DNA of 64,000 nucleotides from an uncultured Aliarcobacter sp. (GCA_963664305.2 CAXXLV010000002.1:1600001-1664000); one strand, 5' to 3'. Shown: positions 5,640 to 57,936, numbered from the stretch's first letter. Made by a program: numbers and translations. Notes: generated by a model from the letters alone, not told the origin.

Positions 5640-5647
5640 CTAAAAAG

Positions 5648-9414: not shown

Positions 9415-9885
9415 ATGACAGAAATAATAGTAAAAATGCTTATAGAATCTATCTTTGCGAGTATTGCATCTGTTGGTTTTGCCATGGTTTTTAATGTGCC
9501 TAGACATACTTTGGTTTATTGTGCATTTGGTGGAGCAATTACTTATATAGCTAGAACTATGTTTTTACACTTAGGATTAGGAATTGAAATATCAACTTTT
9601 TTAGCTTCAACTTTTATAGGAATTGTTGCTCTTAGATGGTCAAGAAAATATTTAATACCAAGACCAGTTTATACAGTTGCTTCAATTATTCCAATGATTC
9701 CTGGAACTTATGCATTTGCAGCCATGATTAGTTTAGTTGATATGAATAGTCATGGTGTTACAACTGAATTAATAGATATTTTTATTCACAATGGATTAAA
9801 AGCAGTTTCTATTTTGGGAGCTATTAGTTTTGGTTTAGCGTTACCTTCACTATATTTTATGAGATTAAATAGACCAATTATTTAA
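9415..9885 (+). CDS. YjjB/ThrE_2 family exporter subunit
   Basis: GFAMVFNVP and IIPMIPG motifs; adjacent to ThrE partner. Confidence 0.85.
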   Translation: MTEIIVKMLIESIFASIASVGFAMVFNVPRHTLVYCAFGGAITYIARTMFLHLGLGIEISTFLASTFIGIVALRWSRKYLIPRPVYTVASIIPMIPGTYAFAAMISLVDMNSHGVTTELIDIFIHNGLKAVSILGAISFGLALPSLYFMRLNRPII

Positions 9886-9890
9886 CAATT

Positions 9891-9995
9891 TAATTTTAAA
9901 CAATTCTCAAAAACAAGAGTTTACACACAATGAAACTTTGAAGCTAAAGCTTCTTTTCATTGGGTAAAATTGTTTATTTGAACTGTCTAAAATTA
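9891..9995. repeat. Long imperfect intergenic palindrome (about 105 bp) between convergent genes
   Basis: Nested pairs GAAGCT/AGCTTC, CAATGAAA/TTTCATTG, TTTAC/GTAAA, AAACAA/TTGTTT, TAATTTTA/TAAAATTA. Confidence 0.6.
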
Positions 9996-10000
9996 TAAAT

Positions 10001-30714: not shown

Positions 30715-31445
30715 TGAGTATTGAAAAAGGTAGAGAAATAACTATTTCAGTTCTAAAATTCAATCCAAGAAGTAAGGTTTCTAAACCTCACTTTGTTGAG
30801 TACAAATTAGAAGAGACTCCTGGGATGACTCTTTTCATTGCATTAATGAAAATCAGAGAAACTTTAGATCCAGATTTATCTTTTGATTTCGTTTGTAGAG
30901 CTGGTATTTGTGGAAGTTGTGGTATGGTTGTAAATGGTAAACCATCTTTAGCTTGTAGAACATTAATTGCTAACTATCCAACAGGAAAATTACAATTAAT
31001 GCCTATGCCTGCATTTGAATTAATCAAAGATTTATCTGTAAATACAGGTAAATGGATGGATGCAATGTCTAAAAGAGTTCAATCTTGGATTGTAACAAAT
31101 GAAGAAACAGACATTACAAAAATGGAAGAAAGAATTGATCCAGATGTTGCAAATGATACATTCGAATTAGATAGATGTATTGAGTGTGGTATTTGTGTTG
31201 CTTCTTGTGGAACAATGTTAATGAGACCTAACTTCGTTGGACCTGTTGGATTAAATAGAGTTGCAAGATTTGAAGTTGACCCACATGACAAAAGAACTGC
31301 TGAAGATTTCTATGAATTAATCGGTGATGATGATGGAATCTTTGGTTGTATGTCTTTAATGGCTTGCGAAGACCATTGTCCAAAACACTTACCATTACAA
31401 AACAAAATTGCTTACTTAAGAAGAAAATTAGTAGCACTTAGATAA
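30714..31445 (+). CDS. frdB: Fumarate reductase iron-sulfur subunit
   Basis: [32 protein letters not shown]. Confidence 0.97.
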
Positions 31446-31449
31446 TTAT

Positions 31450-31472
31450 TACGAAGGATTTACTCCTTCGTA
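31450..31472 (+). terminator. Hairpin after frdB, probable terminator
   Basis: TACGAAGGA-tttac-TCCTTCGTA 9-bp stem. Confidence 0.65.
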
Positions 31473-31477
31473 AATAA

Positions 31478-31529
31478 AAAAATATAAAAAGTTAAATATC
31501 ATTAGTGATATTTAACTTTTTATATTTTT
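31478..31529. repeat. Perfect 24-bp inverted repeat with 4-nt loop
   Basis: 31478-31501 is the exact reverse complement of 31506-31529. Confidence 0.9.
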
Positions 31530-31541
31530 GGGAGATTAAAA

Positions 31542-33893
31542 ATGAGTTTAGTAAATGACTACTTTTTATTATATCACGGTATCACATTTGAACAAAATTT
31601 AGATGTAGAGCCAATAGAAGCAACTATAAATGAGGAAACATTTACTATATTTGCTTTAATTATAAGTGCAACGAGAAAAAATTACGATAAATTTTTACCA
31701 CTTACATCATTTAAAACATTATGTCAACAAATAAAAGTAAAAAGTCCTTCTAACTTAAATGAATTAAACCATTTACAACATAACATTATAGAGACTATCT
31801 TACAAAATAAATCTAAACAAAATATAAATGTTTTACACTCTTCTTTTGAATATTTAAAAAATGAAAATATTATAAATAGTGAACATTATAATAAACTATT
31901 ATCTTTATTTGAATACAAAGAATTAGATTTAATTGAAGAACAAACTCATAATCAAGTTGAAAAAATTGATGATGAAAATAAATCATCATTTAAAGATTTA
32001 AAAGCTACTTTAGAAAATTTAATATCTGAACTAAAAAATGACATCTCAAATAAAGAGATACTTGAAGAACTTTCAAATACAAAAAATTATCTAGATAATC
32101 AAAAATTCTCAATCGGAATTACTGGTGTTATGAATGCTGGTAAATCTACAATGCTTAACGCTCTAATGGGAAGAGAAATTCTTGGAAGTGCAGTTGTTCC
32201 AGAAACTGCAAACTTAACAATTGTAAAACACAATCCAACTGATACAGCAAAAGTTTATTATTGGAATCAACAAGAGTGGGATAGAATTGTAAAATCAGCA
32301 GAACAACTTGAATCAATGAAAGATTTTGTTAATGAAACAAATAAAATCTTTGGAGAGAATTTAAAAAACTATATAAGACCTGTTTCGAGATTTGATGAAG
32401 TTGATATTAAAGATTTATCTTCATATACTTCAGCAGAAGCTAGCGGAAAAAAATGTAATCTTGTAAAATATGTAGAATTAGGTTCTCAACTTGATTTCTT
32501 AAGTGATGGAATTGAAATAGTTGACACACCAGGACTTGATGACCCTGTTATTCAAAGAGAAGAGATAACAAAAGAGTATATCAGTCAATGTGATATGATG
32601 TTACACCTAATGAATGTATCTCAAAGTGCAACTCTAAAAGATGTTGATTTTATCATTGATGCTGTTTTATATCAAAATATTTCAAAACTTTTAATTGTAA
32701 TTACACGTGCAGATACAGTTACAAAAGAACAACTTGATGAAGTTATTAAATATACTAAATCATCAATTGAAAAACAGTTAAAAGCTCAAAATAAAGATTC
32801 TCAATTAGATTACATATTAAAAACTATTAAATTCATTCCTATTTCTGGAAGAATGGCTCTATTACATAGAACTGGTCGAGCACAAGAGGCATTAGATGCT
32901 GGATTTACTTTAGAGCAAACTGGTATTTTAGAAATTGAAAAATATTTAACTGAAACACTTTTTGGAACAAATTCTCAAAAAGGTGAACTTGTAATTCAAT
33001 CTTCTAAAAATCAATTACAAAAAATTATTGAGAAACAAACATCTTTTTACAACTATGAATTAAAACTTTTATCAAAATCAAAAGATGAATTAGAAAAAGA
33101 GCTAGAAGAGTTTAACAAGAAAAAAGCTGTAAATACAAGAATTTTCCAAGCAATGAGTGAAGATATTAATTTCTATAAAAATGATGCAAAATCATATATT
33201 GACTCACTTGAAACTTTTTTACAAAGTGAATTAATTGACTTACAAACAGTTATAAAACAAAGAGTTGTAAGTGATGTTAGATACTCTTTTGAAAAAACTA
33301 AAAAAAGACCAGAAAATAGTAGAATCAAAGTTATTGTTGAAACAGCAATAAAAGATGGAATTATTGATGTAATTAGAGATTATAGATATAAATTTATCAA
33401 AAAATCTCAAACTATTGGTGAGCAATGTGAACAAAAATACCATGATATGGGATTTACAATTGGTCATAAGAATGAGAACTTTGATGCAAGAGGATTTTTC
33501 CAAGATGACTTCAAATCAGGATTTTTAACTTCAAATAATGAAGTTTTAATTTCTCAAATAACTGAAGCTGTTTCAAAATCAAAAGAATCAAAAATAAATG
33601 AATTAGATAGAGAAATTGAAGGATTAATTTCAAATCAATTTACTTCTATTGAAGAAGATATAAAATCAAAAGCTAAAAAAGTTAGTACATTACTGATTGA
33701 TTCTTTCTTCAAAACTTTAAATGCTCCATTAAAATCATTTGAACAAAAACTTAAAAATGATGAAGAAACACTTCAAAATCAAATCAATTCATTTGAAGAA
33801 AATGACAAAAATAGAGCTCAATTATCAATTGATATACATAAAAACATTAAAAAACTTGAAAATATTTCAACAACTATTAAAGGATTATACTAA
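31542..33893 (+). CDS. Bacterial dynamin-like GTPase 1
   Basis: GVMNAGKST (G1), PET (G2), DTPG (G3), TRAD (G4), long helical C-terminus. Confidence 0.88.
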   Translation: MSLVNDYFLLYHGITFEQNLDVEPIEATINEETFTIFALIISATRKNYDKFLPLTSFKTLCQQIKVKSPSNLNELNHLQHNIIETILQNKSKQNINVLHSSFEYLKNENIINSEHYNKLLSLFEYKELDLIEEQTHNQVEKIDDENKSSFKDLKATLENLISELKNDISNKEILEELSNTKNYLDNQKFSIGITGVMNAGKSTMLNALMGREILGSAVVPETANLTIVKHNPTDTAKVYYWNQQEWDRIVKSAEQLESMKDFVNETNKIFGENLKNYIRPVSRFDEVDIKDLSSYTSAEASGKKCNLVKYVELGSQLDFLSDGIEIVDTPGLDDPVIQREEITKEYISQCDMMLHLMNVSQSATLKDVDFIIDAVLYQNISKLLIVITRADTVTKEQLDEVIKYTKSSIEKQLKAQNKDSQLDYILKTIKFIPISGRMALLHRTGRAQEALDAGFTLEQTGILEIEKYLTETLFGTNSQKGELVIQSSKNQLQKIIEKQTSFYNYELKLLSKSKDELEKELEEFNKKKAVNTRIFQAMSEDINFYKNDAKSYIDSLETFLQSELIDLQTVIKQRVVSDVRYSFEKTKKRPENSRIKVIVETAIKDGIIDVIRDYRYKFIKKSQTIGEQCEQKYHDMGFTIGHKNENFDARGFFQDDFKSGFLTSNNEVLISQITEAVSKSKESKINELDREIEGLISNQFTSIEEDIKSKAKKVSTLLIDSFFKTLNAPLKSFEQKLKNDEETLQNQINSFEENDKNRAQLSIDIHKNIKKLENISTTIKGLY

Positions 33894-38435: not shown

Positions 38436-40616
38436 CTATATTTTTTTTAGTTTTAATCTCAAAGAGTTTAATACAACTGTTACAGAAGAAAAACTCATAG
38501 CAATTCCAGCGTACATTGGACTTAGCATCACTCCAAATATTGGATAAAATAATCCAGCTGCTAAGGGAATTCCAGCAGCATTATAAATAAATGCCCAAAA
38601 TAGATTTTGTTTTATGATTTTCATTGATTCAATTGATAAATTAATACTTTTTAAAACAGCACTTAACTCGTTGTTAATAAGTATTATATCTCCTGCATCT
38701 TTAGTTATATCCGAACCAGAATTTAGTGTAATTCCAATATCTGCTTGTTTGATTGAAGGTGAATCATTTATTCCATCTCCCACAAACATAACCTTTGCCT
38801 CTTTTTGAAGTTCCATAATTACTTTATATTTTTCAGCAGGAAGAACTTGAGCATATACTTTTTCTATTCCTAATTTTTGAGCTACACTATTTGCTGTAGT
38901 TTTATTGTCACCTGTTAATAAAATAGGTGTTATCTCTTTTAGTTTTAAATTCTCTATTAACTCTTTAGCACCCTCTTTTATCGTATCTGCCAAGGCAAAA
39001 ACTGCAACGCATTTTTTATCAAAAGAAGTTAGGATAACTCCACTTCCTTCCTCTAGTGATTTATTGTAAAACTCTAAATATTTATTTTCTAATAAAACTT
39101 CATTTTTTTCTAAAAAATCAAGATTCCCAATCAATACTTTTTTATCTTCGAAGTCTGCACTTATTCCTTTTCCTGCTATGATTTGAATATTTGTAAATAT
39201 TTTGTCACAAGCTAGATTTTTTGCTTTTACAAAATTTACAACTGCTTTTGAAATAGGATGTTCACTTTGTGTTTCAAGTGAAGCTAATACCTCAAGATAT
39301 TTTTCTTCATACAAAGCATCTTTAACACTTATAATTCCTGTTGTTAAAGTTCCAGTTTTATCAAAAACTGCATATTTTATATCTTTTATAAGTTCAAGTA
39401 TTTCTGGATTTTTTATCAAAATTCCCTCACGTGCACCTTTTCCAACGGAACTAACTATTGCAATTGGAGTTGCTAAACCTAAAGCACAAGGGCAAGAGAT
39501 AATCAAAACAGAAATAGAAGCTAAAATAGCATCTAAGGCATCACCTAAAATAAAAAACCAAATCAAAAAAGTAACAATGGAAATAACTATAACAGTTGGC
39601 ACAAAAATATTTGCAACCTTATCCGCAAATCTACTAATTGGAAGTTTTTTACTTTGAGCTGTACTTAAAAGAGCAACTATTTTAGAAAGAGTTGTATCTT
39701 TTGACTCTTTTAAAACTTCAACTTCAATAACACCCGAAGTATTTAAAGTTCCAGCTATTACCTCATCACCTATTGTCTTATATACAGGCATTGATTCACC
39801 AGTAAGCATAGAAGTATCAATATCTGCACTTCCTTTTTTTATGATTGCATCTGTTGATATTTTTTCTCCTGATTTTATAAGAACTTTATCTCCAACTTTT
39901 AACTGTGTTGCTAAAATAGTTTTATATGTTCCATCTTCACAAATCAAAGTTGCATTCAAAGGAGCTAAATCCATCAATTTTTTTAAAAAATCTGTTGCTT
40001 TTGCTTTTGAACGCTCTTCAAGTAATCGCCCTAAAAGTATAAAAGTGATAATCACAACCGCACCATCAAAATATAAAAATCTTAAATGCTCAGGGAATAA
40101 AGAGGGAAATAAAACTACAAAAACAGAATAAAAATATGCAGCACTAGTTCCAAGAGCAACTAAAACATTCATATCATAATTTTTATTACTAACTGCCTTG
40201 TATGCCAAAATATAAAATCTTGCTCCTGCATAAAATTGAACAATCGAAGCTAAAAAAAACATCAGATATTGATTTGTTTGCATATTTTTTAGAGGAAAAA
40301 ACATAAAATAAAACATAAGTGCTGCAATACTAACACTAAGAATAAAAACTCTTTTTAGTTCGTTATATGCTTTTAGTTTACTCTTTTCCAAAGCTTCTAA
40401 ATCTTCTTCGACTGTATAACCTAGCTTTTCTATTTTATTGATTAGACTTTGTTTATCTAAAAAATTTGTGTCTATATAAAATTCGCCTTCATTTGAAGCA
40501 AAACTAACTTTTGAAGATTCTAAACCTTTCATCTTTGAAACGGCTCGTTCAATTCCATTTGAACAATTTACACAAGTCATTCCAGAAATATTTAATTTGA
40601 TTTTTTCTTTTGACAT
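38436..40616 (-). CDS. copA: Copper-translocating P1B-type ATPase
   Basis: GMTCVNC HMA, TGES, CPCALGLA, DKTGTLT, SEHP, GDGIND, YN and MxxSS Cu(I) signatures. Confidence 0.95.
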   Translation of the reverse strand: MSKEKIKLNISGMTCVNCSNGIERAVSKMKGLESSKVSFASNEGEFYIDTNFLDKQSLINKIEKLGYTVEEDLEALEKSKLKAYNELKRVFILSVSIAALMFYFMFFPLKNMQTNQYLMFFLASIVQFYAGARFYILAYKAVSNKNYDMNVLVALGTSAAYFYSVFVVLFPSLFPEHLRFLYFDGAVVIITFILLGRLLEERSKAKATDFLKKLMDLAPLNATLICEDGTYKTILATQLKVGDKVLIKSGEKISTDAIIKKGSADIDTSMLTGESMPVYKTIGDEVIAGTLNTSGVIEVEVLKESKDTTLSKIVALLSTAQSKKLPISRFADKVANIFVPTVIVISIVTFLIWFFILGDALDAILASISVLIISCPCALGLATPIAIVSSVGKGAREGILIKNPEILELIKDIKYAVFDKTGTLTTGIISVKDALYEEKYLEVLASLETQSEHPISKAVVNFVKAKNLACDKIFTNIQIIAGKGISADFEDKKVLIGNLDFLEKNEVLLENKYLEFYNKSLEEGSGVILTSFDKKCVAVFALADTIKEGAKELIENLKLKEITPILLTGDNKTTANSVAQKLGIEKVYAQVLPAEKYKVIMELQKEAKVMFVGDGINDSPSIKQADIGITLNSGSDITKDAGDIILINNELSAVLKSINLSIESMKIIKQNLFWAFIYNAAGIPLAAGLFYPIFGVMLSPMYAGIAMSFSSVTVVLNSLRLKLKKI

Positions 40617-40934: not shown

Positions 40935-43049
40935 TCAATTATCTTTCGTTTCATTTGATAAATATTCATACAAATACAAATATTGTCTTAACTCTTTTAG
41001 GCTTTCAAGTTTAATTCCCTCTTCTATCCAAGCTTTAATATTTGAAGGAATTTCAAGTGGTTTTAATAACTCCTCTTTCTTCTTTTTTGAAATTTTTTCA
41101 TGTTCTGCTAATACTGAAATATGACCCAGAATTGAAGTTAATCCTAAATCTCTAATTTGTGCAATTTCTTCTACACTTTTTCCTTCATTTAAAAGTTCAT
41201 AAGTTTCAAGATATGTTTTTGTGAGTTTCTTTAATGGCTCTTTATTTTGTAATTTTTCTTTGTATTCTTCTTTTATCTCTTTAGATAAATTTAAAAAATC
41301 TTCTCCATATTTTTCATACTTTACAAGACCAACACCATTTATATTTAACATATCATCTTTTGTTATTGGAAGTTTTAAAGCAAACTCTTTTAAAGTCTTA
41401 TCACCAAAAATAACATAAGCTGGAACTTCATGTTCTAATGCAATCTCTTTTCGTAAAGTTCTAAATCTTTCGTAAATCAACTCATCAAAACTCAGTTCTG
41501 TTTCTTCCTCTTGGATTTTTGAAGCTACACCTAATTTATCACTATCTATAAAAAGTTTCTCTTTTCCTTTTAATATTTCTAATCCTAAAGAGCTTATTTT
41601 CAAAGCTCGAAATTCCCCTAAATTTAAAGCTTCTATATCTATTAATTTATCAGCAATTGCTATCCATTCATTTTTACTTTTATCAATTCCTAGATTATAA
41701 ACACTTAATTTATCATGTTCTAACTCTAAAAGTTTTTGATTTTTTGAACCCCTTAAAATATCTATGATGTGATTTAGTCCAAATCTTTGTTCACTTCTAT
41801 AAATAGCACTTAAAAGTTTTTGAGCATCAACACTTACATCTACAAGTTCAACTTCACCTTTTGTACAGTTATCACATAGAGTTTTACAAGCTTCAATCTC
41901 ATCTTCAAAATAACCTGCAATCATTTTATGACGACAATTATTACTCACACAATACCTATACATAAATTCCAATTTATCAAGGGCAGTTTGTTTGTATTCA
42001 TCATCAATAGCTTCTTCGATTTGTATTTTTCTTTTTACCTCATCACTTTTTGAATAAAGCATATAAACATAAGACATTTCACCATCACGCCCTGCCCGAC
42101 CGATTTCTTGATAGTAATTTTCAAGGGTTTTAGGTAAACTTGTATGTATTACAAAACGAATATTTGATTTATCAATTCCCATTCCAAAAGCGATGGTTGC
42201 TACTACAATATCTATTTTTTCATATACAAAATCATTAAAAACTTCATTTTTTCTGTCACTACTAAGCCCTGCATGATAGGCTTTTGCACTATATCCATTT
42301 TCACTCAAAAACTCTGCTGTTGATTCTGCTTCTTTTCTTGTAAAAGTGTAGATGATTCCACATAAACCTTTGTGAGTTTTTAAGAAGTTTAGTATTTGAG
42401 TTTTTCCGTTTGCTATTCGTGGTTCTACTTTTATATCAAGATTATCTCTTACAGTTTTTGCTCTAAAATGTTTTGGATTTTGTAAATTCAAAGATGAAGC
42501 AATATCAGCTTCAACTTTTTTTGTAGCAGTTGCAGTAAATGCACAAATTGAAGTATTTGGGAAAAATCTTTTTAGTCTATCAAGATTTCTATACTCAGCT
42601 CTAAACTCATGTCCCCAAGCAGATACACAATGGGCTTCATCTATTACAAAATAGTTTATATTTATTCGCTGTAAAACTGCTACGAATTCATTTGAAGTAA
42701 ATCTTTCAGGTGCAACATAGATAAATTTTAACTCCCCATTTAAAAGCTTTAGAAGAGTAAAACTATTTTCATCATTTGAAGTTGCTGAACTAATCATATC
42801 TGCACTAATATTTAAATCATTCAGAGCTTTTATCTGGTCTTGCATAAGTGCAATAAGAGGAGAAATTACAACAGTAGTTCCTTCCATAAGAAGAGTTGGA
42901 AGTTGATAACAAAGTGATTTTCCTCCACCTGTTGGCAAAATTGTCAAAACATCTTGTTTTGCAAGAATTGTATCAACAACTTCTTCTTGGAAAGAACGAA
43001 AAGTATCGTGTCCGAAAATATCTTTTAGTATTTGGTATTTTTTATTCAT
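40935..43049 (-). CDS. recQ: ATP-dependent DNA helicase RecQ
   Basis: PTGGGKSLCYQLP, DEAHC, ATIAFGMGID, QEIGRAGRDG, Zn-binding Cys, RQC, HRDC; start 43049 (alternative 43064). Confidence 0.97.
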   Translation of the reverse strand: MNKKYQILKDIFGHDTFRSFQEEVVDTILAKQDVLTILPTGGGKSLCYQLPTLLMEGTTVVISPLIALMQDQIKALNDLNISADMISSATSNDENSFTLLKLLNGELKFIYVAPERFTSNEFVAVLQRININYFVIDEAHCVSAWGHEFRAEYRNLDRLKRFFPNTSICAFTATATKKVEADIASSLNLQNPKHFRAKTVRDNLDIKVEPRIANGKTQILNFLKTHKGLCGIIYTFTRKEAESTAEFLSENGYSAKAYHAGLSSDRKNEVFNDFVYEKIDIVVATIAFGMGIDKSNIRFVIHTSLPKTLENYYQEIGRAGRDGEMSYVYMLYSKSDEVKRKIQIEEAIDDEYKQTALDKLEFMYRYCVSNNCRHKMIAGYFEDEIEACKTLCDNCTKGEVELVDVSVDAQKLLSAIYRSEQRFGLNHIIDILRGSKNQKLLELEHDKLSVYNLGIDKSKNEWIAIADKLIDIEALNLGEFRALKISSLGLEILKGKEKLFIDSDKLGVASKIQEEETELSFDELIYERFRTLRKEIALEHEVPAYVIFGDKTLKEFALKLPITKDDMLNINGVGLVKYEKYGEDFLNLSKEIKEEYKEKLQNKEPLKKLTKTYLETYELLNEGKSVEEIAQIRDLGLTSILGHISVLAEHEKISKKKKEELLKPLEIPSNIKAWIEEGIKLESLKELRQYLYLYEYLSNETKDN

Positions 43050-43109
43050 TTTGGATGGTAACATAGTTTGAATAAGGGGTTAGTAAAAGGTATTTAGTTA
43101 TATTTATAA

Positions 43110-44447
43110 CTAATACATTTGAATATCCTTTTCCATTTCTTTAATACTTTTATAAATTAATTTATTAAATATATATTCAATTTCATTAGATTTGACATTT
43201 TTCAAATTAAAAATATCAATTAATATCTCTCTTTTTTCATCTTTTGTTAAATCTGAAAAATTTGGTATATATTTTGTATTTGTTCTATTTTTTAAAATCT
43301 CAAAATAAGTTCGAATAAATTTTTTAACTTCTTTTTTATCATATTCAATATTGAATTTTTTAAACATATTTAATATAAAAGTATCTAATCTAAATAAAAG
43401 AGTGGTGTCATTGATTTGAGAGAAAAAATATAACCAACCATATTTTTTACCTTCAAATTTACAACCAGTAATTTTTAAATTTAATTTCCAATATAAAAAA
43501 TTTATATTTTGTTCTTTTGAATGTTTATACTGTGTGAAAATATTTATTATTGATGTATGCAAGTTATCGATAGAAGATTTTCTAACTGATATTAAATTAT
43601 TACTATATGAATAACCTAGGAAATAAAAAGTATCACTTAAACTTCCTATCTCAGTTTTATCTTTACTTTTCCCTATTTCATGTATTTTTAAATCTAAATT
43701 ATTCATATCATTTTCTAACAATTTAAATACACTAAATGTATCTTGTTTATTACATAGAATTAATATATCATCAACATATCTAAAGTATTCATAGTTTATT
43801 TGGGAAGAATGTTTCTTGTCAAATTCTATAAAATAAATTGAAGCAAGTATATTTGATATTGATAGTCCTTGAGGTACACCTTTGTTATTAGAATATTTTT
43901 CAATATATCTATTACTTTTATTTACCGTTTCTTGTTTTATTGATTTGATTAATAAATCTGTAAATTGAATTTTTTTAGTTCTTTTATATAGAAATTTAAC
44001 TAATATTTCATGATTTATAGAGGGATAAAAATTTTCTATATCCGTTTTAATATAGCTATCAAATTTACCACTTTGAATACTTGTTTTTATTTTATTTATT
44101 TTTGAATGAATTAATTCATTTGTTAATTCCTCTTCAAATATCTCATTCAATGTATTAAAAATAATTTTTAGTACTATTTTATCTCTTATTGTAGGAATTG
44201 AAATTATTCTTGGAAATTTATTTTTACCTTTTGAAATTAATTTTTCTTTATAAAATGAAAAATTATATGTTTTATTCAAAATTTTCCTATTTATTAATTC
44301 AAACTCAGAATTTTGTTTTTTTTCATAACTTTTAATATTTATGCCATCAATTCCTATTGATGGCTTATTCTTAATAGTATCATCAAAAACTTTTTTTATA
44401 TTTTTTATTTTGATATTTTTATTAAATATCCTGAATGGATATTTCAT
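43110..44447 (-). CDS. Reverse transcriptase, defence-associated UG/Abi type (UG17/DRT10-like)
   Basis: GIDG (RT0), PRIISIPTIRDKI, TDIENFYPSINH, GVPQGLSISNILASIY, RYVDDILI, YFLGY; no retron VTG/NAxxH, no endonuclease; ATGA-coupled to a SLATT gene. Confidence 0.9.
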   Translation of the reverse strand: MKYPFRIFNKNIKIKNIKKVFDDTIKNKPSIGIDGINIKSYEKKQNSEFELINRKILNKTYNFSFYKEKLISKGKNKFPRIISIPTIRDKIVLKIIFNTLNEIFEEELTNELIHSKINKIKTSIQSGKFDSYIKTDIENFYPSINHEILVKFLYKRTKKIQFTDLLIKSIKQETVNKSNRYIEKYSNNKGVPQGLSISNILASIYFIEFDKKHSSQINYEYFRYVDDILILCNKQDTFSVFKLLENDMNNLDLKIHEIGKSKDKTEIGSLSDTFYFLGYSYSNNLISVRKSSIDNLHTSIINIFTQYKHSKEQNINFLYWKLNLKITGCKFEGKKYGWLYFFSQINDTTLLFRLDTFILNMFKKFNIEYDKKEVKKFIRTYFEILKNRTNTKYIPNFSDLTKDEKREILIDIFNLKNVKSNEIEYIFNKLIYKSIKEMEKDIQMY

Positions 44448-45007
44448 TGAAAAGATATACTTACAATTAAAATAATAACTGGAAGTATGACTAAAAAGAA
44501 AAGTGTAACAAAATCTCTAATTTTATACATCCATCTTTTTACACTTTTTTCAAATGTCCATTTTCCATTAATTTCTTCATACTTTTTTTGGTTTCTAACT
44601 TCATGCATTACTTGTAAATAATCATTTTCCGAATGATTTTCTGTTAAACTAATTATCATATTATATTGATTTTTCAAATCACTATAATCTTCTTTATTAT
44701 TTTCTTTTTTGAGAATATCATCATATAATTTTGCCATCAGTACATATGATGTTTGAAGTATCAAGGCTCTTTCTTTATAATTCATTGCAAAAATAAAAAT
44801 TGATACTATAACTATCAATATAGATAAAATTAATGTTAATATTTCAAAATTTATATTTTCACATTTAATATCAACAATAGTAATTGCAATTATAAAAAAA
44901 GAATAATATGCAATCAATATTTGAGAAATTAAATCATTTCTCTTAAATCTTTCAGAAGTATTAATTCTAGATTTTCTTGTTTTCCATACATTATCACTAA
45001 AAGCCAT
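44444..45007 (-). CDS. SLATT-domain membrane effector (SLATT_5-like)
   Basis: N-terminal WKTRKSRINTSERF helix, two TMs, helical region with ENHS, third C-terminal TM; adjacent to RT. Confidence 0.82.
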   Translation of the reverse strand: MAFSDNVWKTRKSRINTSERFKRNDLISQILIAYYSFFIIAITIVDIKCENINFEILTLILSILIVIVSIFIFAMNYKERALILQTSYVLMAKLYDDILKKENNKEDYSDLKNQYNMIISLTENHSENDYLQVMHEVRNQKKYEEINGKWTFEKSVKRWMYKIRDFVTLFFLVILPVIILIVSISFQ

Positions 45008-45031
45008 ATAAAGTCCCTATTAAAGTTAAGA

Positions 45032-45159
45032 GTAAAGTTCCCAAAAAATTAGTTTAAAATGTCTTAAAATAAGACCTATAAATAAAATGTAAACATTTAT
45101 TAATTAGTTATGTTTCAAAAGTGAAACCTATCTTTTTGTAGAAAGATAAGGAACTTTAC
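45032..45159 (-). ncRNA. RT-associated structured ncRNA (about 128 nt)
   Basis: Perfect 10-bp closing stem 45150-45159/45032-45041 enclosing four hairpins (45129-45148, 45112-45127, 45081-45101, 45061-45075); starts 7 nt after a TATAAT box. Confidence 0.8.
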
Positions 45160-45165
45160 ATGATT

Positions 45166-45171
45166 ATTATA
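45166..45171 (-). promoter_or_regulatory. Sigma70 -10 box for the ncRNA-SLATT-RT transcript
   Basis: TATAAT on the minus strand; predicted start 45161-45159 coincides with the 5' end of the closing stem. Confidence 0.7.
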
Positions 45172-45310
45172 TTTTAAAACTAATAATAATTAAATAAAAA
45201 TTATTTTTATATCTAAAGTTTTATTTAATCAATTTTTTAAATAAAGTGAAAATACTAATTTTATTATTTATGATATATATCGAGAATGCAAAAACACCCT
45301 CAATATAAAA

Positions 45311-45913
45311 TTATTGTCTTTGTTTCATTTGATGATTTAAGAACTCTTCTTTACTAATATTTCCATCTTTATTAGTATCTATATCTGAAAATGATGGTTG
45401 ATTATCAATATTTTTCATCATTCTTCCTTCAGATAGTTTTTCTTCCATTCTTTTCTCTCTAGCTTCTTCCATCTCTTTAGTACTAATCATTCCATCATGA
45501 TTCATGTCATAATTTTCAAAACTTGGCATATTAAAATGTTGTCCCATTCCTTGACCCATCATACCTTGCCCAAAGCCTTTGTTTCCTTGATTAAGTTGCA
45601 TTTGTTTATTTTGACCTTTTAATAACTCTATTTCAGTCAATTTTCCATCTTTATTTGTATCAAACATACTAAAATCTGGAGCATTATCTATATTTCTCAT
45701 AGGCATTCCTGCTTCTTGTTTTTGCTCCATTCTTTGTAGTCTAATATCATTGAACTCTTTTTCACTTACAAATCCATCTTTATTTGTATCATAAGTTGAG
45801 AATTCTATCGGACCTCGATTTGATATATCTTCTGCATTAACAGTGCTTATCATAATAGATAAAGAACTAGCAACAACTAAACCTAATTTAACTGTTCGTG
45901 ATAAATTTTTCAT
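45311..45913 (-). CDS. Secreted EF-hand protein with Met/Gly/Gln-rich linker
   Basis: Signal peptide; four loops DTNKDGFVSEKE, DTNKDGKLTEIE, DMNHDGMISTKE, DTNKDGNISKEE; start 45913 after AAGGA. Confidence 0.85.
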   Translation of the reverse strand: MKNLSRTVKLGLVVASSLSIMISTVNAEDISNRGPIEFSTYDTNKDGFVSEKEFNDIRLQRMEQKQEAGMPMRNIDNAPDFSMFDTNKDGKLTEIELLKGQNKQMQLNQGNKGFGQGMMGQGMGQHFNMPSFENYDMNHDGMISTKEMEEAREKRMEEKLSEGRMMKNIDNQPSFSDIDTNKDGNISKEEFLNHQMKQRQ

Positions 45914-45982
45914 TATCTCATCCTTTTTATTTAGATGATTCATTCTACTCTTTATTTAATATAATTACCATAACTTAATTTA

Positions 45983-47275
45983 TTATTTTAAAACGACTTT
46001 TACTTTATCTAAACTATTTGTGTTAGCAAAGTCATTTATAAGAGTTGCTAATTGTAAAACATCACTATTTTTCATTCTAATACAACCAGCTGATTCATTT
46101 GTACCAATTGTTTTTTCATTTAAAGTTCCATGTATTCTATATGTACTTTTTCCATCAACAATATGCGTAAGATTTATTTTAGCTGCACCCATATAGTTAT
46201 ATTTATCTCCAGGAGGTACAACAGAAGGAAGATTTATTCCTCTTTTTCTAAAACTTTTTATTGTATCAGCTGTTGGATACCAAACTGGGTTTAAAGAAAT
46301 TTGAGAGATTTTTCCAACACCAAAAGGTTTTTTTACATCATCTTTTCCAGTTGAAACTCTGTAAGTTTTTATCTCTTTTAAATGGTCATCTATTTGAGCT
46401 TTTACTGTCATATAATTTGTAACAGAATTTACTTCAATAATAAGTTGTTGATAATCTGAAATATTTGCTTCAATATCTTCTTCAACTTCTTTTAAAGGTG
46501 TAGGTTTAATTTCTTCTTTTTTAGGTATCTCTTTTTTGATTACTTTTGGTTTTTCATAACTTTTTGTGATTTTTTGAACTTTTTCTTTTTTTTCAAGTTG
46601 CTCATTCGCTCTATCAAATTCATCCATACTGATTTGTCTTAACTCTTCTTCGTATGAAGCAATTTTTTCATCATTTTCTTTTTCTTCTTTAGCACTCTCT
46701 TCTTTTGCTAAAGGTACAACCTCCTCTTTTATTTCTGGTTTTTCTTCCACATCTTCATCATCTACAAATCTTTTTCCCTCAGCAAATGGATAAGAACTAA
46801 CTAATTTAAACTCTTCTGTATTTGGAACAGCAGAAACCAAAGGAAACTCTTCTACTTTTTTTAAAGGAACAGTTACTTCATTTTCTTTTGGTATTACTGT
46901 TTCAACTATTTCTTGTTGAATTACTGAATCTTCTAAATCAATATAAACTTTTTTATTGTTCTCTTTTAATTTTAATACTTTTTCTTCTAACTCTTTTACA
47001 TAAGGTTTTTGTTGTTTTACATAAGTTGAAGAATTTTTTATAGTTTGATTAGCAATTTTTTTATCATCATAAACATTTAAATATGTAAAATATCTATTCT
47101 TATCTTTTACAATAAGTACTTCTGCATTCATACTATCTAGTATTCGTTTTTTACAAGTTAATGCATTTTCTAGATTTGAAGTTACACAAACTGAAATAGT
47201 ATATTTTTGCGTATTTGCAAAAACAAAAGAACTATTAAAAATAATAAATAATAAAGTTAAAATTTTTCTAATCAT
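45983..47275 (-). CDS. L,D-transpeptidase (YkuD family) with N-terminal SPOR-like domain and acidic linker
   Basis: Signal peptide; NPVWYP, RIHGT...ESAGCIRM catalytic motif. Confidence 0.88.
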   Translation of the reverse strand: MIRKILTLLFIIFNSSFVFANTQKYTISVCVTSNLENALTCKKRILDSMNAEVLIVKDKNRYFTYLNVYDDKKIANQTIKNSSTYVKQQKPYVKELEEKVLKLKENNKKVYIDLEDSVIQQEIVETVIPKENEVTVPLKKVEEFPLVSAVPNTEEFKLVSSYPFAEGKRFVDDEDVEEKPEIKEEVVPLAKEESAKEEKENDEKIASYEEELRQISMDEFDRANEQLEKKEKVQKITKSYEKPKVIKKEIPKKEEIKPTPLKEVEEDIEANISDYQQLIIEVNSVTNYMTVKAQIDDHLKEIKTYRVSTGKDDVKKPFGVGKISQISLNPVWYPTADTIKSFRKRGINLPSVVPPGDKYNYMGAAKINLTHIVDGKSTYRIHGTLNEKTIGTNESAGCIRMKNSDVLQLATLINDFANTNSLDKVKVVLK

Positions 47276-49693: not shown

Positions 49694-49824
49694 TGGAAAT
49701 ATCAAAAGAGCATCTTTATAAACCTCAAAATTTAGAAGAGTTATCAAAAGAGGTAAAAGAAAAGATTGAAAAAAAGAGATTATCTTTTTTTCAAAAACTT
49801 TTCAGATTTTTATTTAGAAAATAA
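49693..49824 (+). CDS. Uncalled 43-aa small protein with C-terminal amphipathic helix
   Basis: TAATG overlap with the upstream stop; MEISKEHLYKPQNLEELSKEVKEKIEKKRLSFFQKLFRFLFRK. Confidence 0.55.
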   Translation: MEISKEHLYKPQNLEELSKEVKEKIEKKRLSFFQKLFRFLFRK

Positions 49825-50740
49825 AATCTTCTATATTCTGAGCAACCATTTCTACAAGTCTAGTTCTAGCTTCAATACTTGCCCAACCAATATGTGGAGT
49901 TAATAAAAGTCTATCTTTGTTTTTAACTTTTAAAAGAGGATTTGACTCTTCAATTGGTTCTTTATTAACAACATCAATCCCACAATAAATCTCTTTTTCA
50001 TCTATAAGTTTTGCCAAATCATTTTCATTGATAATTCCACCACGACCAAGATTTAGTAAAATTGCACCTTTTTTCATATTTTTCATGTTTTCATAATTTA
50101 ATAAATCTTTTGTATTTTCATTTAAAGGTGCGTGAATAGAGATAATATCACTTGTTTTTAATAACTCATCAAGACTTGCTTGTTTATATTCACTATTTGA
50201 ATTTTTTCCACTTGTTGAAAAATAAACTACTTCACAATCAAAAGCTCGTGCTTTTTTTGCTAAATTTCGACCTATTTCACCAAGACCAATAATTCCTACT
50301 CTTTTTTTATCAAGTTCATAAAATGGTTCATCTATATGTGTAAAAATTTTTGATTTTTGCCATTTCCCCTCATCTACATAAGATTTATAATAATTTAATT
50401 TTTGAACAAAATAAAAAATCATTGAAAATGCAACTTGAACAACACTTGAAGTTGAATATCCAGCTACATTTTTTACTTCAATATCTTTTTCTTTTGCATA
50501 AACTAAATCTACATTATTCGTTCCTGTTGCAGTTATACAAATAAGTTTTACATTTGAATCATCCATTTCATCTTTACCAATAACAACTTTATTAGTAAGA
50601 ACTATATCTGCATCTTTTATTCTTTCTTTTGTTTTTTCTTTTTTTGTTACATCATAAGAAGTAACTTCTCCATATTTTTCAAAAATAGAAACATCAATAT
50701 CAAAACCTAAAGTTGCCCTATCTAAAATTACTATTTTCAT
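49814..50740 (-). CDS. D-2-hydroxyacid dehydrogenase
   Basis: GIIGLGEIG, ISIHAPL, LNLGRG, LTPHIGW. Confidence 0.93.
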   Translation of the reverse strand: MKIVILDRATLGFDIDVSIFEKYGEVTSYDVTKKEKTKERIKDADIVLTNKVVIGKDEMDDSNVKLICITATGTNNVDLVYAKEKDIEVKNVAGYSTSSVVQVAFSMIFYFVQKLNYYKSYVDEGKWQKSKIFTHIDEPFYELDKKRVGIIGLGEIGRNLAKKARAFDCEVVYFSTSGKNSNSEYKQASLDELLKTSDIISIHAPLNENTKDLLNYENMKNMKKGAILLNLGRGGIINENDLAKLIDEKEIYCGIDVVNKEPIEESNPLLKVKNKDRLLLTPHIGWASIEARTRLVEMVAQNIEDFIF

Positions 50741-54057: not shown

Positions 54058-56655
54058 ATGACAAACGAAAAATATCTTAAAGACCTTCCAGGTGTTGATG
54101 GTGTTAAGTATTATGATGTTAAATCTGCAGTAGAAGATATCACTGCTGGTTCATTTGCAAAACTTAACTACACTTCAAGAGTATTAGCAGAAAACTTATT
54201 AAGAAAATGTCCTTCTGAAGATTTAAAAGATTCATTAGTACAATTAATTGAAAAAAGAACAGACAAAGATTTCCCTTGGTATCCATCAAGAGTTATTTGT
54301 CACGATATCTTAGGTTTAACTGCATTTGTTGACTTAGCAGGATTAAGAGAAGCTGTTGCTTCAAAAGGTGGAGACCCACTAAAAGTAAATCCAGTAGTAC
54401 CTACTCAATTAATCGTTGACCACTCATTAGCAGTTGAGTGTGGTGGATTTGATCCAGATGCATTCCAAAAAAATAGAGATATCGAAGATAGAAGAAATGC
54501 AGATAGATTCCACTTTATTAACTGGACTAAAGAAGCATTTAATAACGTTGATGTTATTCCTCCAGGTAACGGTATTATGCACCAAATCAACCTTGAGAAA
54601 ATGTCTCCAGTTGTTCACTTAAATGATGGTATTGCATCTCCTGATACATTAGTTGGAACTGACTCACATACTCCTCACGTTGATGCACTTGGTGTTATCG
54701 CTGTTGGTGTTGGTGGATTAGAAGCTGAAAACGTAATGCTTGGAAATCCTTCTTATATGAGGGTTCCTGAAATCATTGGTGTTGAAATCGTAGGAACAAG
54801 AGCTCCTGGAATTACAGCTACTGATATTGCATTATCATTAACTTCTTTCTTAAGAGAAAACAACGTAATTTCTGCATACTTAGAATTCTATGGTTCAGGA
54901 ATCAAATACCTTAACTTAGGTGATAGAGCTACTATTGCAAATATGACTCCTGAATATGGTGCAAGTGCAGGTATGTTCGCTATTGATGACCAAACTATTT
55001 CTTATTTAAGAGTAACAGGTAGAGAAGAAAAACAATGTCAATTAGTTGAAGCTTATGCTAAAGCTAATGGTTTATGGGCAGATGCTTTTGCAGAAGCTAC
55101 ATATGCTAGAACTTTAAAATTTGATTTAACATCAGTTTCAAGATCTTTAGCTGGACCTTCTAAACCACATAAATTAGTACCAACTTCTACTTTAAAAGCT
55201 GAAGGTATTGTAAAAGAGTGGAAACAAGATGGTGATAAAATTCCAGATGGTGGTATTTTAATTGCTGCTATTACTTCTTGTACAAATACTTCAAACCCAA
55301 GAAACGTTATTGCTGCTGGTTTAGTAGCTAAAAAAGCTAACGAACTTGGATTAACAAGAAAACCATGGGTTAAATCTTCATTAGCACCAGGTTCAAAAGT
55401 AATTGAAGTTTATTTAAAAGAAGCTGGATTATTACCTGAATTAGAAAAATTAGGATTCGGTGTAGTTGGTTTTGCATGTACTACTTGTAACGGTATGTCA
55501 GGTGCTTTAGATCCAAAAATCCAACAAGAAGTTATTGATAGAGATATCTATTCAACAGCTGTATTATCTGGAAACAGAAACTTTGATGGAAGAATCCACC
55601 CATACGTAAAAGAAGCATTCTTAGCATCTCCTGCATTAGTTGTTGCATACGCATTAGCTGGAACTGTAAGATTTGATATTGAAAATGATTCTTTAGGTAA
55701 AGATGCTAATGGTAAAGATATTAAATTAGCTGATTTATGGCCAACAGATGCTGAAATTGATGCAATTGAGAAAGAGTATGTAAGACCAGAGATGTATAAA
55801 GCTATTTATGATCCAATGTTTGCAAGAAATGGATTAACTGGAACATCAGCATCTCCATTCTACAAATGGAATACTCAATCAACATATATTAACAAACCTC
55901 CTTATTGGGAAGATGAATATATGCAAATGCCAGCATTAAAAAATATGAGACCATTAGGGGTATTCCCAGATAATATCACTACTGACCACTTATCTCCATC
56001 TAATGCGATTTTACCAACGTCTGCGTCTGGTGAATATTGTTTAAAAATGGGATTACCAGTAGAAGACTTAAACTCTTATGCAACACATAGAGGGGATCAC
56101 CATACAGCTTCAAGAGCTACTTTAGCTAACCCTAAATTATTTAACGAAATGGTTAAAAAAGAAGATGGTTCAGTTAAACAAGGTTCTTTAACAAAAATTA
56201 TGCCTGAAGGTAAAGAATCTAGAATGTGGGAAGCTATAGAAGAGTACACAAATAGAAAACAACCTTTAATCATCATTGCTGGAACTAACTATGGTCAAGG
56301 GTCTTCTAGAGACTGGGCTGCAAAAGGTGTAAGACTTGCAGGTGTTGAAGTTTTAATTGCTGAGTCAATTGAAAGAATTCACAGAACTAACTTAGTTGGA
56401 ATGGGTGTATTACCATTACAATTCAAAGATGGTGACACAAGACATACTTATGCAATCGATGGATCTGAAACTTTTGACATCGAAGGTGAAATCACTCCAA
56501 GATGTGACTTAACTGTTGTTATGACAAGAGCAAATGGTGAAGTTGTTAAATTCCCTGTAACTTGTAGATTAGATACTTCTGCTGAAGTTGATGTTTACAA
56601 AAATGGTGGAATCTTACAAAAATTCGCTAAAGATGTTATTGCATCTTCAAAATAA
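54058..56655 (+). CDS. acnD: Fe/S-dependent 2-methylisocitrate dehydratase
   Basis: CHDILG, GTDSHT, AITSCTNTSNP, ACTTCNGMSG; followed by prpF. Confidence 0.95.
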   Translation: MTNEKYLKDLPGVDGVKYYDVKSAVEDITAGSFAKLNYTSRVLAENLLRKCPSEDLKDSLVQLIEKRTDKDFPWYPSRVICHDILGLTAFVDLAGLREAVASKGGDPLKVNPVVPTQLIVDHSLAVECGGFDPDAFQKNRDIEDRRNADRFHFINWTKEAFNNVDVIPPGNGIMHQINLEKMSPVVHLNDGIASPDTLVGTDSHTPHVDALGVIAVGVGGLEAENVMLGNPSYMRVPEIIGVEIVGTRAPGITATDIALSLTSFLRENNVISAYLEFYGSGIKYLNLGDRATIANMTPEYGASAGMFAIDDQTISYLRVTGREEKQCQLVEAYAKANGLWADAFAEATYARTLKFDLTSVSRSLAGPSKPHKLVPTSTLKAEGIVKEWKQDGDKIPDGGILIAAITSCTNTSNPRNVIAAGLVAKKANELGLTRKPWVKSSLAPGSKVIEVYLKEAGLLPELEKLGFGVVGFACTTCNGMSGALDPKIQQEVIDRDIYSTAVLSGNRNFDGRIHPYVKEAFLASPALVVAYALAGTVRFDIENDSLGKDANGKDIKLADLWPTDAEIDAIEKEYVRPEMYKAIYDPMFARNGLTGTSASPFYKWNTQSTYINKPPYWEDEYMQMPALKNMRPLGVFPDNITTDHLSPSNAILPTSASGEYCLKMGLPVEDLNSYATHRGDHHTASRATLANPKLFNEMVKKEDGSVKQGSLTKIMPEGKESRMWEAIEEYTNRKQPLIIIAGTNYGQGSSRDWAAKGVRLAGVEVLIAESIERIHRTNLVGMGVLPLQFKDGDTRHTYAIDGSETFDIEGEITPRCDLTVVMTRANGEVVKFPVTCRLDTSAEVDVYKNGGILQKFAKDVIASSK

Positions 56656-56663
56656 TTAAATAT

Positions 56664-56691
56664 CTAAAAAGCATCTTATGATGCTTTTTAG
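56664..56691 (+). terminator. Hairpin after acnD (12-bp stem)
   Basis: CTAAAAAGCATC-ttat-GATGCTTTTTAG. Confidence 0.6.
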
Positions 56692-56760
56692 TTCTAAAAC
56701 TTAACTAGAGAAATCAAAGATTTTTTTATTTAATTTTTAAAATTTAAAAAGGAGAAACGA

Positions 56761-57936
56761 ATGGCATATCAACCACAATTTAAAGTTAAAGCTACATATA
56801 TGAGAGGTGGTACTTCAAAAGGAACATTCTTTAATATTGCAGATTTACCAAAAGAAGCACAAGAAGATTCAAGAAAAAGAGATAAATTATTACAAAGAAT
56901 CGTAGGTTCTCCAGACGTTTATAAACAACAAATGGATGGAATGGGAGGAGCAACTTCAAGTACATCTAAAGCTATTTTAGTTGGAAAATCAACTGTTCCA
57001 AATCATGATGTAGATTACTATTTCTGTCAAGTTGCAATTGATAAAGATTTCGTTGATATGAGTGGAAACTGTGGTAATTTAAGTTCTGCAGTTGGACCTT
57101 TTGCTATTAAAGAAGGATTAGTTGATAATGTACCTGAAAATGGTGTTTGTTGTGTAAGAATTTGGCAAGCAAATATCAAAAAAACTATTTTATGTTATGT
57201 AAAAATGGAAAATGGAATGGTTAAAGAAATGGGAGATTACTATATTGATGGTGTTGCTTTCCCAGCTGAAGAAATCGTTTTAGAATTTGCTGAGCCTGTT
57301 GATCCAAGTGAAGAATTATTCCCAACTGGAAATTTAGTAGATGATTTAGAAGTTCCAGGAATTGGTACATTTAAAGCAACTATGATTACTGCAGGAATTC
57401 CAACTTGTTTTGTTAACGCTGCTGATATTGGATATAAAGGAACTGAGCTTCAAGTTGATATCAATAATGATGCTGAAGCACTTGCTAGATTTGAAGTTAT
57501 TAGATCTTATGCTGCATTAAAAATGGGATTAATTTCTGATTTAAAAGAAGCAGAAACAAGACAACACACTCCAAAAATTGCTTTTGTTGCTCCTAAATCT
57601 GATTTTACTACTTCAAGTGGTAAAGAAGTTAAAGCAGATGAAATAGATTTACATGTAAGAGCATTATCTATGCAAAAATTACACCACGCTATGATGGGAA
57701 CTGCTTCAGTTGCTATTGGTGTTGCTGCTTGTATTCCAGGAACTTTAGTAAACTTAGCTGCTGGTGGTGGAGAAAAAACTGCTGTTGAATTTGGTCACCC
57801 ATCAGGAACTTTAAAAGTTGGTGCAGTTATTAAAGAAGAAAATGGAAAATTTGTTGTTGATAAAGCAACAATGAGTAGAAGTGCAAGAATAATTATGGAA
57901 GGTTATGTTCACGTTCCAGCAGGAACAATGGAATAA
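56761..57936 (+). CDS. prpF: 2-methylaconitate cis-trans isomerase
   Basis: YMRGGTSKG, GNCGNL, HHAMMGT, GHPSG. Confidence 0.96.
   Translation: MAYQPQFKVKATYMRGGTSKGTFFNIADLPKEAQEDSRKRDKLLQRIVGSPDVYKQQMDGMGGATSSTSKAILVGKSTVPNHDVDYYFCQVAIDKDFVDMSGNCGNLSSAVGPFAIKEGLVDNVPENGVCCVRIWQANIKKTILCYVKMENGMVKEMGDYYIDGVAFPAEEIVLEFAEPVDPSEELFPTGNLVDDLEVPGIGTFKATMITAGIPTCFVNAADIGYKGTELQVDINNDAEALARFEVIRSYAALKMGLISDLKEAETRQHTPKIAFVAPKSDFTTSSGKEVKADEIDLHVRALSMQKLHHAMMGTASVAIGVAACIPGTLVNLAAGGGEKTAVEFGHPSGTLKVGAVIKEENGKFVVDKATMSRSARIIMEGYVHVPAGTME

Follow-up and report, generated by a model that had tools for sequence, protein, structure and literature searches.

A predicted DRT10 (UG17) non-coding RNA upstream of a SLATT-reverse transcriptase gene pair in an uncultured Aliarcobacter

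What is the function of the AT-rich DNA that lies directly upstream of a SLATT effector gene and a reverse transcriptase (RT) gene in an uncultured Aliarcobacter sp.? In the window, i.e., the whole stretch of 64,000 nt analyzed here, a sequence-only reading had drawn five helices within 128 nt on the minus strand and had taken them for the template and scaffold RNA of the RT. This study followed up that reading, and the claim is supported by homology and gene context, not by experiment. On these grounds, there is high confidence that the element is the non-coding RNA (ncRNA) of a tripartite DRT10 (UG17) anti-phage system, which consists of the ncRNA, a SLATT_5 membrane effector, and the RT; it is the combination of a UG17 RT, a SLATT protein, and an ncRNA that points to DRT10.

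Systems that combine UG17 and SLATT are now named DRT10 (PMC12632851). DRT10 is a recently described defence system, with an RT that works in a telomerase-like way, and has been the subject of preprints of 2025-26 (PMC12632851; 10.64898/2026.04.29.721553; 10.64898/2026.06.29.735271). Tang et al. (2025) reported a 137-nt ncRNA upstream of SLATT that is bound by the RT, carries the template, and is indispensable for defence; for cDNA synthesis, a C-terminal Ser of the protein (Eco3), or likely a Tyr (Eco1 Y444), serves as the primer, and an A-B-A' pattern in the template loop, after a stable stem-loop, programs tandem repeats (PMC12632851). The priming residue of Eco3 is S456 (10.64898/2026.06.29.735271). 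Sanchez-Nieto et al. (2026) distinguished three subtypes (A, B, and C), each with an ncRNA model of its own, and described an RNA of 143 nt, the basal stem of which is essential, and a 7-nt AGTAATA repeat made from the template ACUUAUUACU (10.64898/2026.04.29.721553). According to Ramirez et al. (2026), one pseudo-symmetric RNA scaffolds two RT protomers, over loop A and loop B, and the distance from the flanking stem-loops sets the template window (10.64898/2026.06.29.735271).

The SLATT-RT cassette and its neighbourhood

The features of the locus are listed in Table 1. The RT matched the PADLOC RT_UG17 profile with 507.7 bits over positions 5-427 of 429, and was far from the cut-offs of the group II intron, Drt2, Drt3a, and retron models. 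Its start overlaps the SLATT_5 stop by 4 nt, and overlapping stop and start codons have been reported for the predominant UG17 arrangement (10.64898/2026.04.29.721553). The active site Y224 V225 D226 D227 (YVDD) is invariant in 37 homologues, and the translation ends in Tyr445. Among the 37 aligned RTs (alignment A1), the last residue is Tyr in 26 and Ser in 10, and one RT has Ser-Phe as its end; a C-terminal Tyr is found in all 20 RTs with at least 63% identity to the window RT and in six of the 17 below that value. At the sequence level, this corresponds to the published division into a Tyr-primed (Eco1) and a Ser-primed (Eco3) type.

Table 1. Predicted features of the DRT10 locus (window coordinates; all on the minus strand)
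Feature	Position	Strand	Details
DRT10 (UG17) ncRNA, scaffold and template RNA (predicted)	45032..45159	-	128 nt; fold, covariation
Closing stem (SL1), 5' strand	45149..45159	-	pairs with 45032-45042
Closing stem (SL1), 3' strand	45032..45042	-	fold and covariation
First inner stem-loop (SL1 of the sequence-only reading)	45129..45148	-	UAUCUUU/AAAGAUA; 7 of 7 pairs covary
Second inner stem-loop (SL2 of the sequence-only reading)	45112..45127	-	GUUUCA/UGAAAC; 7 of 7 pairs covary
Loop A	45097..45111	-	AUAACUAAUUAAUAA, 15 nt; most conserved single-stranded stretch
Third, short inner stem-loop (SL3 of the sequence-only reading)	45081..45101	-	AAUAAAUG/CAUUUUAUU; core supported only
Fourth inner stem-loop, just 5' of loop B (SL4 of the sequence-only reading)	45061..45075	-	GUCUUA/UAAGAC; 7 of 7 pairs covary
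Loop B, predicted template loop	45043..45060	-	AUUUUAAACUAAUUUUUU, 18 nt; between last stem-loop and closing stem
Favoured A-B-A' pattern	45049..45056	-	UAA-AC (45056-45052) then UAA (45051-45049); register as in relatives
-10 promoter hexamer	45166..45171	-	TATAAT; sequence; 6 nt before the first base of the RNA, G45159
SLATT_5 effector gene	44444..45007	-	187 aa; Pfam PF18160 2.3e-29, NCBIfam SLATT_5 1.8e-38, PADLOC RTasSLATT 3.2e-44
UG17 (DRT10) reverse transcriptase gene	43110..44447	-	445 aa; PADLOC RT_UG17 6e-153

The ncRNA-SLATT-RT cassette (43100-45300, ~2.2 kb) has a GC content of 0.19-0.20 vs. 0.25-0.31 in its flanks. RT matches at E <= 1e-30 were obtained in one of the 401 sampled genomes of the phylum, i.e., the window's own, and in eight of 184 genomes of the family, only one of which was close (72% identity). 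Its low GC content and its rarity among relatives fit a horizontally acquired defence cassette.

The cassette sits between an EF-hand protein gene and recQ, and looks like a small acquired insert. The RecQ helicase gene (40935-43064, minus strand; RQC, HRDC, and HTH_40 domains) begins 46 nt downstream of the RT stop codon and gives strong PADLOC 'DpdF' matches, which look like generic helicase similarity. A RecQ N-terminus also follows the RT in a close metagenome relative (L083). RecQ was considered as a partner in the system and rejected, since it is absent from the flanks of the Campylobacterota loci L003-L007, and is regarded as a neighbour and not a component.

Fold and conservation of the RNA

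The five helices were all found in the sequence where the sequence-only reading had drawn them. The ends of the element pair with each other, with GUAAAGUUCC (45159-45150) being complementary to GGAACUUUAC (45041-45032) on the minus strand, and in RNAfold this closing stem is lengthened by one U-G pair to 11 pairs (45159-45149 with 45042-45032). The minimum free energy (MFE) structure contains the closing stem and, of the inner helices, the first, second, and fourth as drawn. The third inner helix stood in part only: of the eight pairs drawn, just five are formed in the MFE structure, and the consensus among homologues retains the inner three pairs and two outer A-U pairs, a core of five pairs that all covary, with the remaining pairs being absent. 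Along the RNA, the closing stem (SL1) is followed by two stem-loops, loop A, the short stem-loop, a 9-nt junction, a further stem-loop, loop B, and the 3' strand of SL1. The last base of the junction in the window RNA is a conserved G (45076), and the junction ends in UAG or UUG in most aligned homologue rows.

Given the GC content of 0.22 of the 128-nt stretch, chance hairpins in AT-rich intergenic DNA have to be considered, as does a retron-type msr-msd RNA. Retrons carry a1/a2 repeats, which the terminal inverted repeat of the element resembles, and folds of equal strength are present elsewhere in the window (e.g., 31409-31552 and 9873-10016). However, the MFE of the 128-nt RNA is -28.4 kcal/mol vs. 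a mean of -14.42 +/- 2.95 for dinucleotide shuffles (n = 200), none of which folded as well (z -4.74). Equally strong folds were found in 1.1% of 1368 GC-matched (+/-0.02) 128-nt windows from both strands of the 64 kb, and a GC-regressed residual as low in 0.5% of all 7986 windows, i.e., the stretch folds unusually but not uniquely well in this AT-rich window. Compensatory changes in homologues, which are found in every helix, likewise indicate a fold beyond AT-rich noise, as had been claimed, and the RT that scored so highly on RT_UG17 reached only 46.5 bits on the NCBIfam retron_St85_RT model (cut-off 235). A retron was therefore rejected on the grounds that RT_UG17 is the best PADLOC model and the retron score falls below its cut-off; taken together, chance hairpins and a retron RNA are left with a very small probability.

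Among the GC-matched 128-nt windows, the strongest fold is that of a perfect inverted repeat at 31478-31529 (24 nt, spacer of 4 nt; ~-39.7 kcal/mol, both strands). Five further regions (9873-10016, 5553-5744, 56609-56768, 49713-49856, and 50385-50512) contain 128-nt windows of comparable GC content with folds that are stronger than that of the ncRNA or at most 2 kcal/mol weaker, ranging from -26.4 to -34.4 kcal/mol and mostly on both strands; 49713-49856 is weaker, with -27.5 kcal/mol at best. The Rfam search of 43000-46500 at E <= 10 yielded no family beyond four chance-level matches, and the gathering score was reached by no family anywhere in the 64-kb window; Rfam 15 contains none of the published DRT10 ncRNA models.

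A protein search retrieved 1657 RT homologues at E <= 1e-20, of which the closest named ones belong to Sulfurimonas and Aliarcobacter, and genome and metagenome scans provided 160 loci. RTs that are 84-95% identical to that of the window were found only as proteins from short metagenome contigs, and the metagenome scan gave one close locus, L083, without its 5' part. The same RNA was found in the same place in the five Campylobacterota loci L003-L007 (RT 52-72% identical). When these were aligned with the window RNA by unguided MAFFT and folded with RNAalifold, the architecture of the sequence-only reading was recovered with 37 pairs, 20 of which show compensatory double changes.

Model R1 was built from these six sequences. 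At E <= 1 it matched 25 of 99 and 12 of 62 sources, every time on the gene strand, and for R1 as well as the later model R2 the RNA at 45032-45159 is the sole match in the 64-kb window. In a model-guided alignment of the 30 R1 matches at E <= 0.05 (26 distinct sequences), 93.9% of the cells contain standard pairs vs. 38-50% with the partners slid. Double changes among the 26 distinct homologues were found in 37 of 37 pairs, including all 11 pairs of the closing stem and the five supported pairs of the short inner stem-loop. The covariation score was 0.813 vs. 0.237 in shuffled alignments (0 of 500 as high) and at most 0.175 in slid ones. As this alignment was fitted to the model, it leans towards the model's structure, and the unguided six-sequence alignment serves as the independent check. 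Model R2, in turn built from the 30 R1 matches, gave matches at E <= 0.1 in 35 of 87 sources, without a single one on the strand opposite to the genes; 14 of these loci are outside the training set. The Campylobacterota-seeded R1 and R2 match Bacillota loci (Paenibacillus, Lacrimispora, Clostridium, and others) and loci with RT-SLATT order, and also reach Nitrospirota-type and Desulfobacterota-type loci.

Many UG17 loci had no recognised ncRNA in the published census, which was based on covariance models (PMC12632851). Table S1 of Tang et al. gives 'ncRNA associated 0' for Aliarcobacter butzleri locus_1 and a Sulfurimonas contig locus_2 (L003 in this study), which are the entries most closely related to the window locus, and for a Paenibacillus albiflavus contig (L061) (PMC12632851); R1/R2 find full-length RNAs at L003 1778-1912 and L061 2326-2464. 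Campylobacterota are not mentioned in the main text of either of the other two preprints, the supplements of which may list such loci (10.64898/2026.04.29.721553; 10.64898/2026.06.29.735271). As its nearest relatives are marked as lacking an ncRNA in the census, the window RNA appears to be a divergent, previously unrecorded DRT10 ncRNA of a lineage missed by that census (PMC12632851). The full covariation support in Campylobacterota, combined with the reach of the models to other lineages, argues that the ncRNA is general to the system and not missing in some lineages. For annotation purposes, it provides a name for an otherwise blank 300-nt intergenic region.

Transcript boundaries, loops, and predicted template

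The TATAAT hexamer on which the proposed start was based is present at 45171-45166, and a start at ~45159 is supported by the positional conservation of -10-like hexamers. In all six Campylobacterota loci, the distance between the end of the hexamer and the RNA 5' end is 6-8 nt. Of the 35 R2 matches, 19 have a hexamer that ends at a distance of 4-9 nt, vs. 3, 8, 8, and 4 in the adjacent distance bins of 6 nt, although several loci are near-identical kin and such counts overstate independence. Most likely, the RNA would be transcribed from this hexamer, with its start at or next to G45159. No intrinsic terminator was found after the RNA, so a discrete 128-nt species is an assumption; the RNA may be cut from the operon transcript, or may simply be its stable 5' part. 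A share of 0.13 of the sampled words of 44400-45300 was found in four wastewater metatranscriptome runs of one study, these being word shares and no evidence of expression or habitat, and other runs guessed to be RNA are also among the word matches for this region.

The RNA lies directly before the effector gene, as the sequence-only reading had stated, with the SLATT_5 start codon 24 nt after the RNA end. This position is what an exclusively cis-acting 5' leader of the SLATT-RT mRNA would have (e.g., an attenuator, riboswitch, or stability element) that is not used by the RT. There is no terminator between the RNA end and the start codon, and a script placed the first gene 10-30 nt 3' of the R2 match in 34 of 35 loci, with L006 being off due to an ORF-calling artefact; the tight spacing and the lack of a terminator make it very probable that the RNA is part of the operon's primary transcript. 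However, the first gene is SLATT-sized in most loci but RT-sized in six, and in loci with RT-SLATT order (L026, L040, L047, L048, L061, and L068) the match is positioned 10-29 nt before the RT gene, so that the RNA precedes RT instead of SLATT. By heading the system in these loci too, the RNA follows the system and not one gene. Furthermore, no riboswitch family was matched, and the E. coli counterparts in a like position are RT-bound, discrete species that template cDNA (PMC12632851; 10.64898/2026.04.29.721553). A role as a leader only is thus considered improbable, and an RNA that serves the RT remains the preferred interpretation.

Within this RNA, the two loops differ in conservation. The loop A core UAAUUAA/ACUAAU is kept in most homologues, and its motif ACUAAU is also present in the published Eco1-like ncRNAs (PMC12632851). 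By analogy with the arrangement described by Ramirez et al. (10.64898/2026.06.29.735271), loop A is probably the seat of the second RT protomer, and the stem-loop at 45061-45075, by comparison with SL5 of Eco3, is probably the anchor of the template boundary. Loop B has the same place as its counterpart in Eco3, between the last stem-loop and the closing stem, and is poorly conserved in sequence among the homologues, as is the template loop across the family (PMC12632851).

Two A-B-A' patterns can be read in loop B. The favoured one, UAA-AC-UAA, has a 5-nt unit and predicts the cDNA repeat GTTTA, i.e., (GTTTA)n; the alternative, AUUUU-AAACUA-AUUUU, has an 11-nt unit and predicts (TAGTTTAAAAT)n. 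The 5-nt unit is favoured because AC also closes the unit in L003-L006, where the pattern is flanked by linkers of 3-5 nt (5') and 5-6 nt (3'), whereas the 11-nt unit would leave no 5' linker and a 3' linker of just 2 nt; in Eco3, deletion of at least two linker bases abolishes synthesis (10.64898/2026.06.29.735271). The mere presence of an A-B-A' pattern proves nothing, since such patterns are common in shuffles of this U/A-rich loop: one occurs in 100% of the shuffled loops when A has to measure at least 3 nt, and in 54% when this minimum is raised to 5 nt. Under a stricter geometry, for which the criteria were chosen after seeing the data, a pattern is found in 57% of the shuffled loops and in five of the six actual loops. 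With a 5-nt and an 11-nt unit offered by one loop, the locus lends itself to a natural test of the template rule, by which the distance from the flanking stem-loops decides what is copied.

The same RNA might also be a DRT10 scaffold with another product, either because loop A, with its 4-nt periodicity (UAAC-UAAU-UAAU), is productive, or because the U6 run of loop B yields poly-dA as in DRT9. The 8-mer AACUAAUU is found in loop A as well as in loop B, six U are located at the 3' end of loop B, and experiments with engineered RNAs of Eco3 and Eco1 showed that repeats can be templated by either loop and that a pattern is functional even if it lacks a B segment (PMC12632851; 10.64898/2026.06.29.735271). 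On the other hand, the loop A core is conserved across lineages in which loop B varies, which fits a recognition role for loop A, and wild-type loop A of Eco3 yields only an abortive product of ~10 nt (10.64898/2026.06.29.735271). The U run is not conserved in relatives and is placed where Eco3 has its untranscribed 3' linker (10.64898/2026.06.29.735271), and no poly-dA was found for the E3659 system (10.64898/2026.04.29.721553). Another product is accordingly given little weight, and repeat synthesis on loop B remains preferred.

The 8-mer common to both loops of the window RNA is not shared between the loops of its relatives, and loop A can be written as three 4-nt units, UAAC UAAU UAAU. It is conceivable but unlikely that both loops are competent for repeat addition in this AT-rich lineage, with each of the two RT protomers making tandem-repeat DNA. 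If true, there would be two repeat products, one of them (GTTTA)n, vs. the one repeat and one abortive product of Eco3.

The preferred mechanism would proceed as follows. The ends of the RNA pair as the closing stem, enclosing the four inner stem-loops and the two single-stranded loops, as folding and covariation show. If the E. coli systems are a guide, two RT molecules would be bound by the folded RNA, the first over the conserved loop A and the second over loop B, and the second would prime from the hydroxyl of Tyr445. This RT would copy a short stretch of loop B, the 5' edge of which would be fixed by the distance from the preceding stem-loop. The nascent DNA could then slip back onto the downstream copy A' and be copied again, giving rise to a long tandem-repeat ssDNA; UAA-AC followed by UAA is the best template candidate, ahead of the 11-nt unit. 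In line with the published model, the build-up of this DNA during infection would switch on SLATT and stop the infected cell.

Comparison with named systems

The closest layout is that of the Eco1-like ncRNAs. Both these and the window RNA are located directly upstream of SLATT in a SLATT-RT operon, and both start with an end-to-end closing stem, followed by two stem-loops and a loop A with ACUAAU, and then by further stem-loops; a template loop of ~18-22 nt leads into the 3' strand of the closing stem. The RT of the window ends in Tyr, like Eco1 (Y444). The window RNA differs in having five helices instead of six, with the 9-nt single-stranded junction in place of the Eco1-like SL5, and in being far more AT-rich. 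It measures 128 nt, with an 11-bp closing stem and four inner helices, vs. the published 137 and 143 nt. In other words, it fits the Eco1/Eco3 plan minus one stem-loop in the second half, while Eco3 is without one in the first half. Its loops A and B have 15 and 18 nt, vs. the 12 and 19 nt reported for those of Eco3 (10.64898/2026.06.29.735271).

Cross-detection between the models was weak. With filters off, the best R2 match falls on the expected spot in five of six Pseudomonadota loci, with low scores of 15-27 bits; L016 is among the five, and in the sixth, L019, the expected spot comes second by 0.3 bits. L016 and L019 carry published Eco1-like RNAs, as verified against Table S2 of Tang et al. 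A reciprocal model, R3, was built from five putative Eco1-like RNAs in a mediocre MAFFT alignment with 24 pairs; a six-sequence alignment that included L013 was visibly misaligned, and L013 was left out. At E <= 10, the window RNA is not among the R3 matches, and the RNAs of its relatives L003, L005, L004, and L006 are found weakly (11-17 bits). The best R3 match in the window (39641-39719, 18.4 bits) lies inside an ATPase gene and was taken as noise. Such weak cross-detection agrees with the published remark that ncRNA models work only within subtypes (10.64898/2026.04.29.721553). The window RNA is likely homologous to the Eco1-like class, judging by its layout, by the motif in loop A, and by an RT that ends in Tyr; model scores do not demonstrate this homology.

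The UG17-A ncRNA of Escherichia sp. E3659 shares the position of the window RNA, and has a basal stem that is essential for accumulation and a template in the 3' single-stranded loop. L003 and L005 carry UUAUUAC-UUAU, which would give the AGTAATA repeat of E3659 in another register. Unlike UG17-A of E3659, loop B of the window has a single ACU and a shorter predicted unit, UAAAC, and the RNA has 128 instead of 143 nt. Since the models match Bacillota and RT-SLATT loci, the window RNA appears closest in sequence and structure to the UG17-C (Bacillota) and UG17-B (RT-SLATT order) lineages.

DRT9 (UG28) resembles the locus in its class 2 UG RT, in the secondary structure of its multi-hairpin ncRNA, and in the priming of synthesis from a protein (PMC12632851). 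DRT9 has a conserved poly-U template and a poly-dA product, whereas the RT of the window is UG17 and the U6 run of its loop B is absent from L003-L007. A DRT9 ncRNA was rejected for these reasons, i.e., an RT of UG17 and not UG28, and a poly-U that is not conserved. Lastly, in the published DRT10 model, the RNA works like telomerase RNA, in that its short template is internal and delimited by a stem, and that repeats are added with the help of an alignment segment (PMC12632851). The two RNAs are not homologous, and DRT10 synthesis is primed from a protein and not from a chromosome end.
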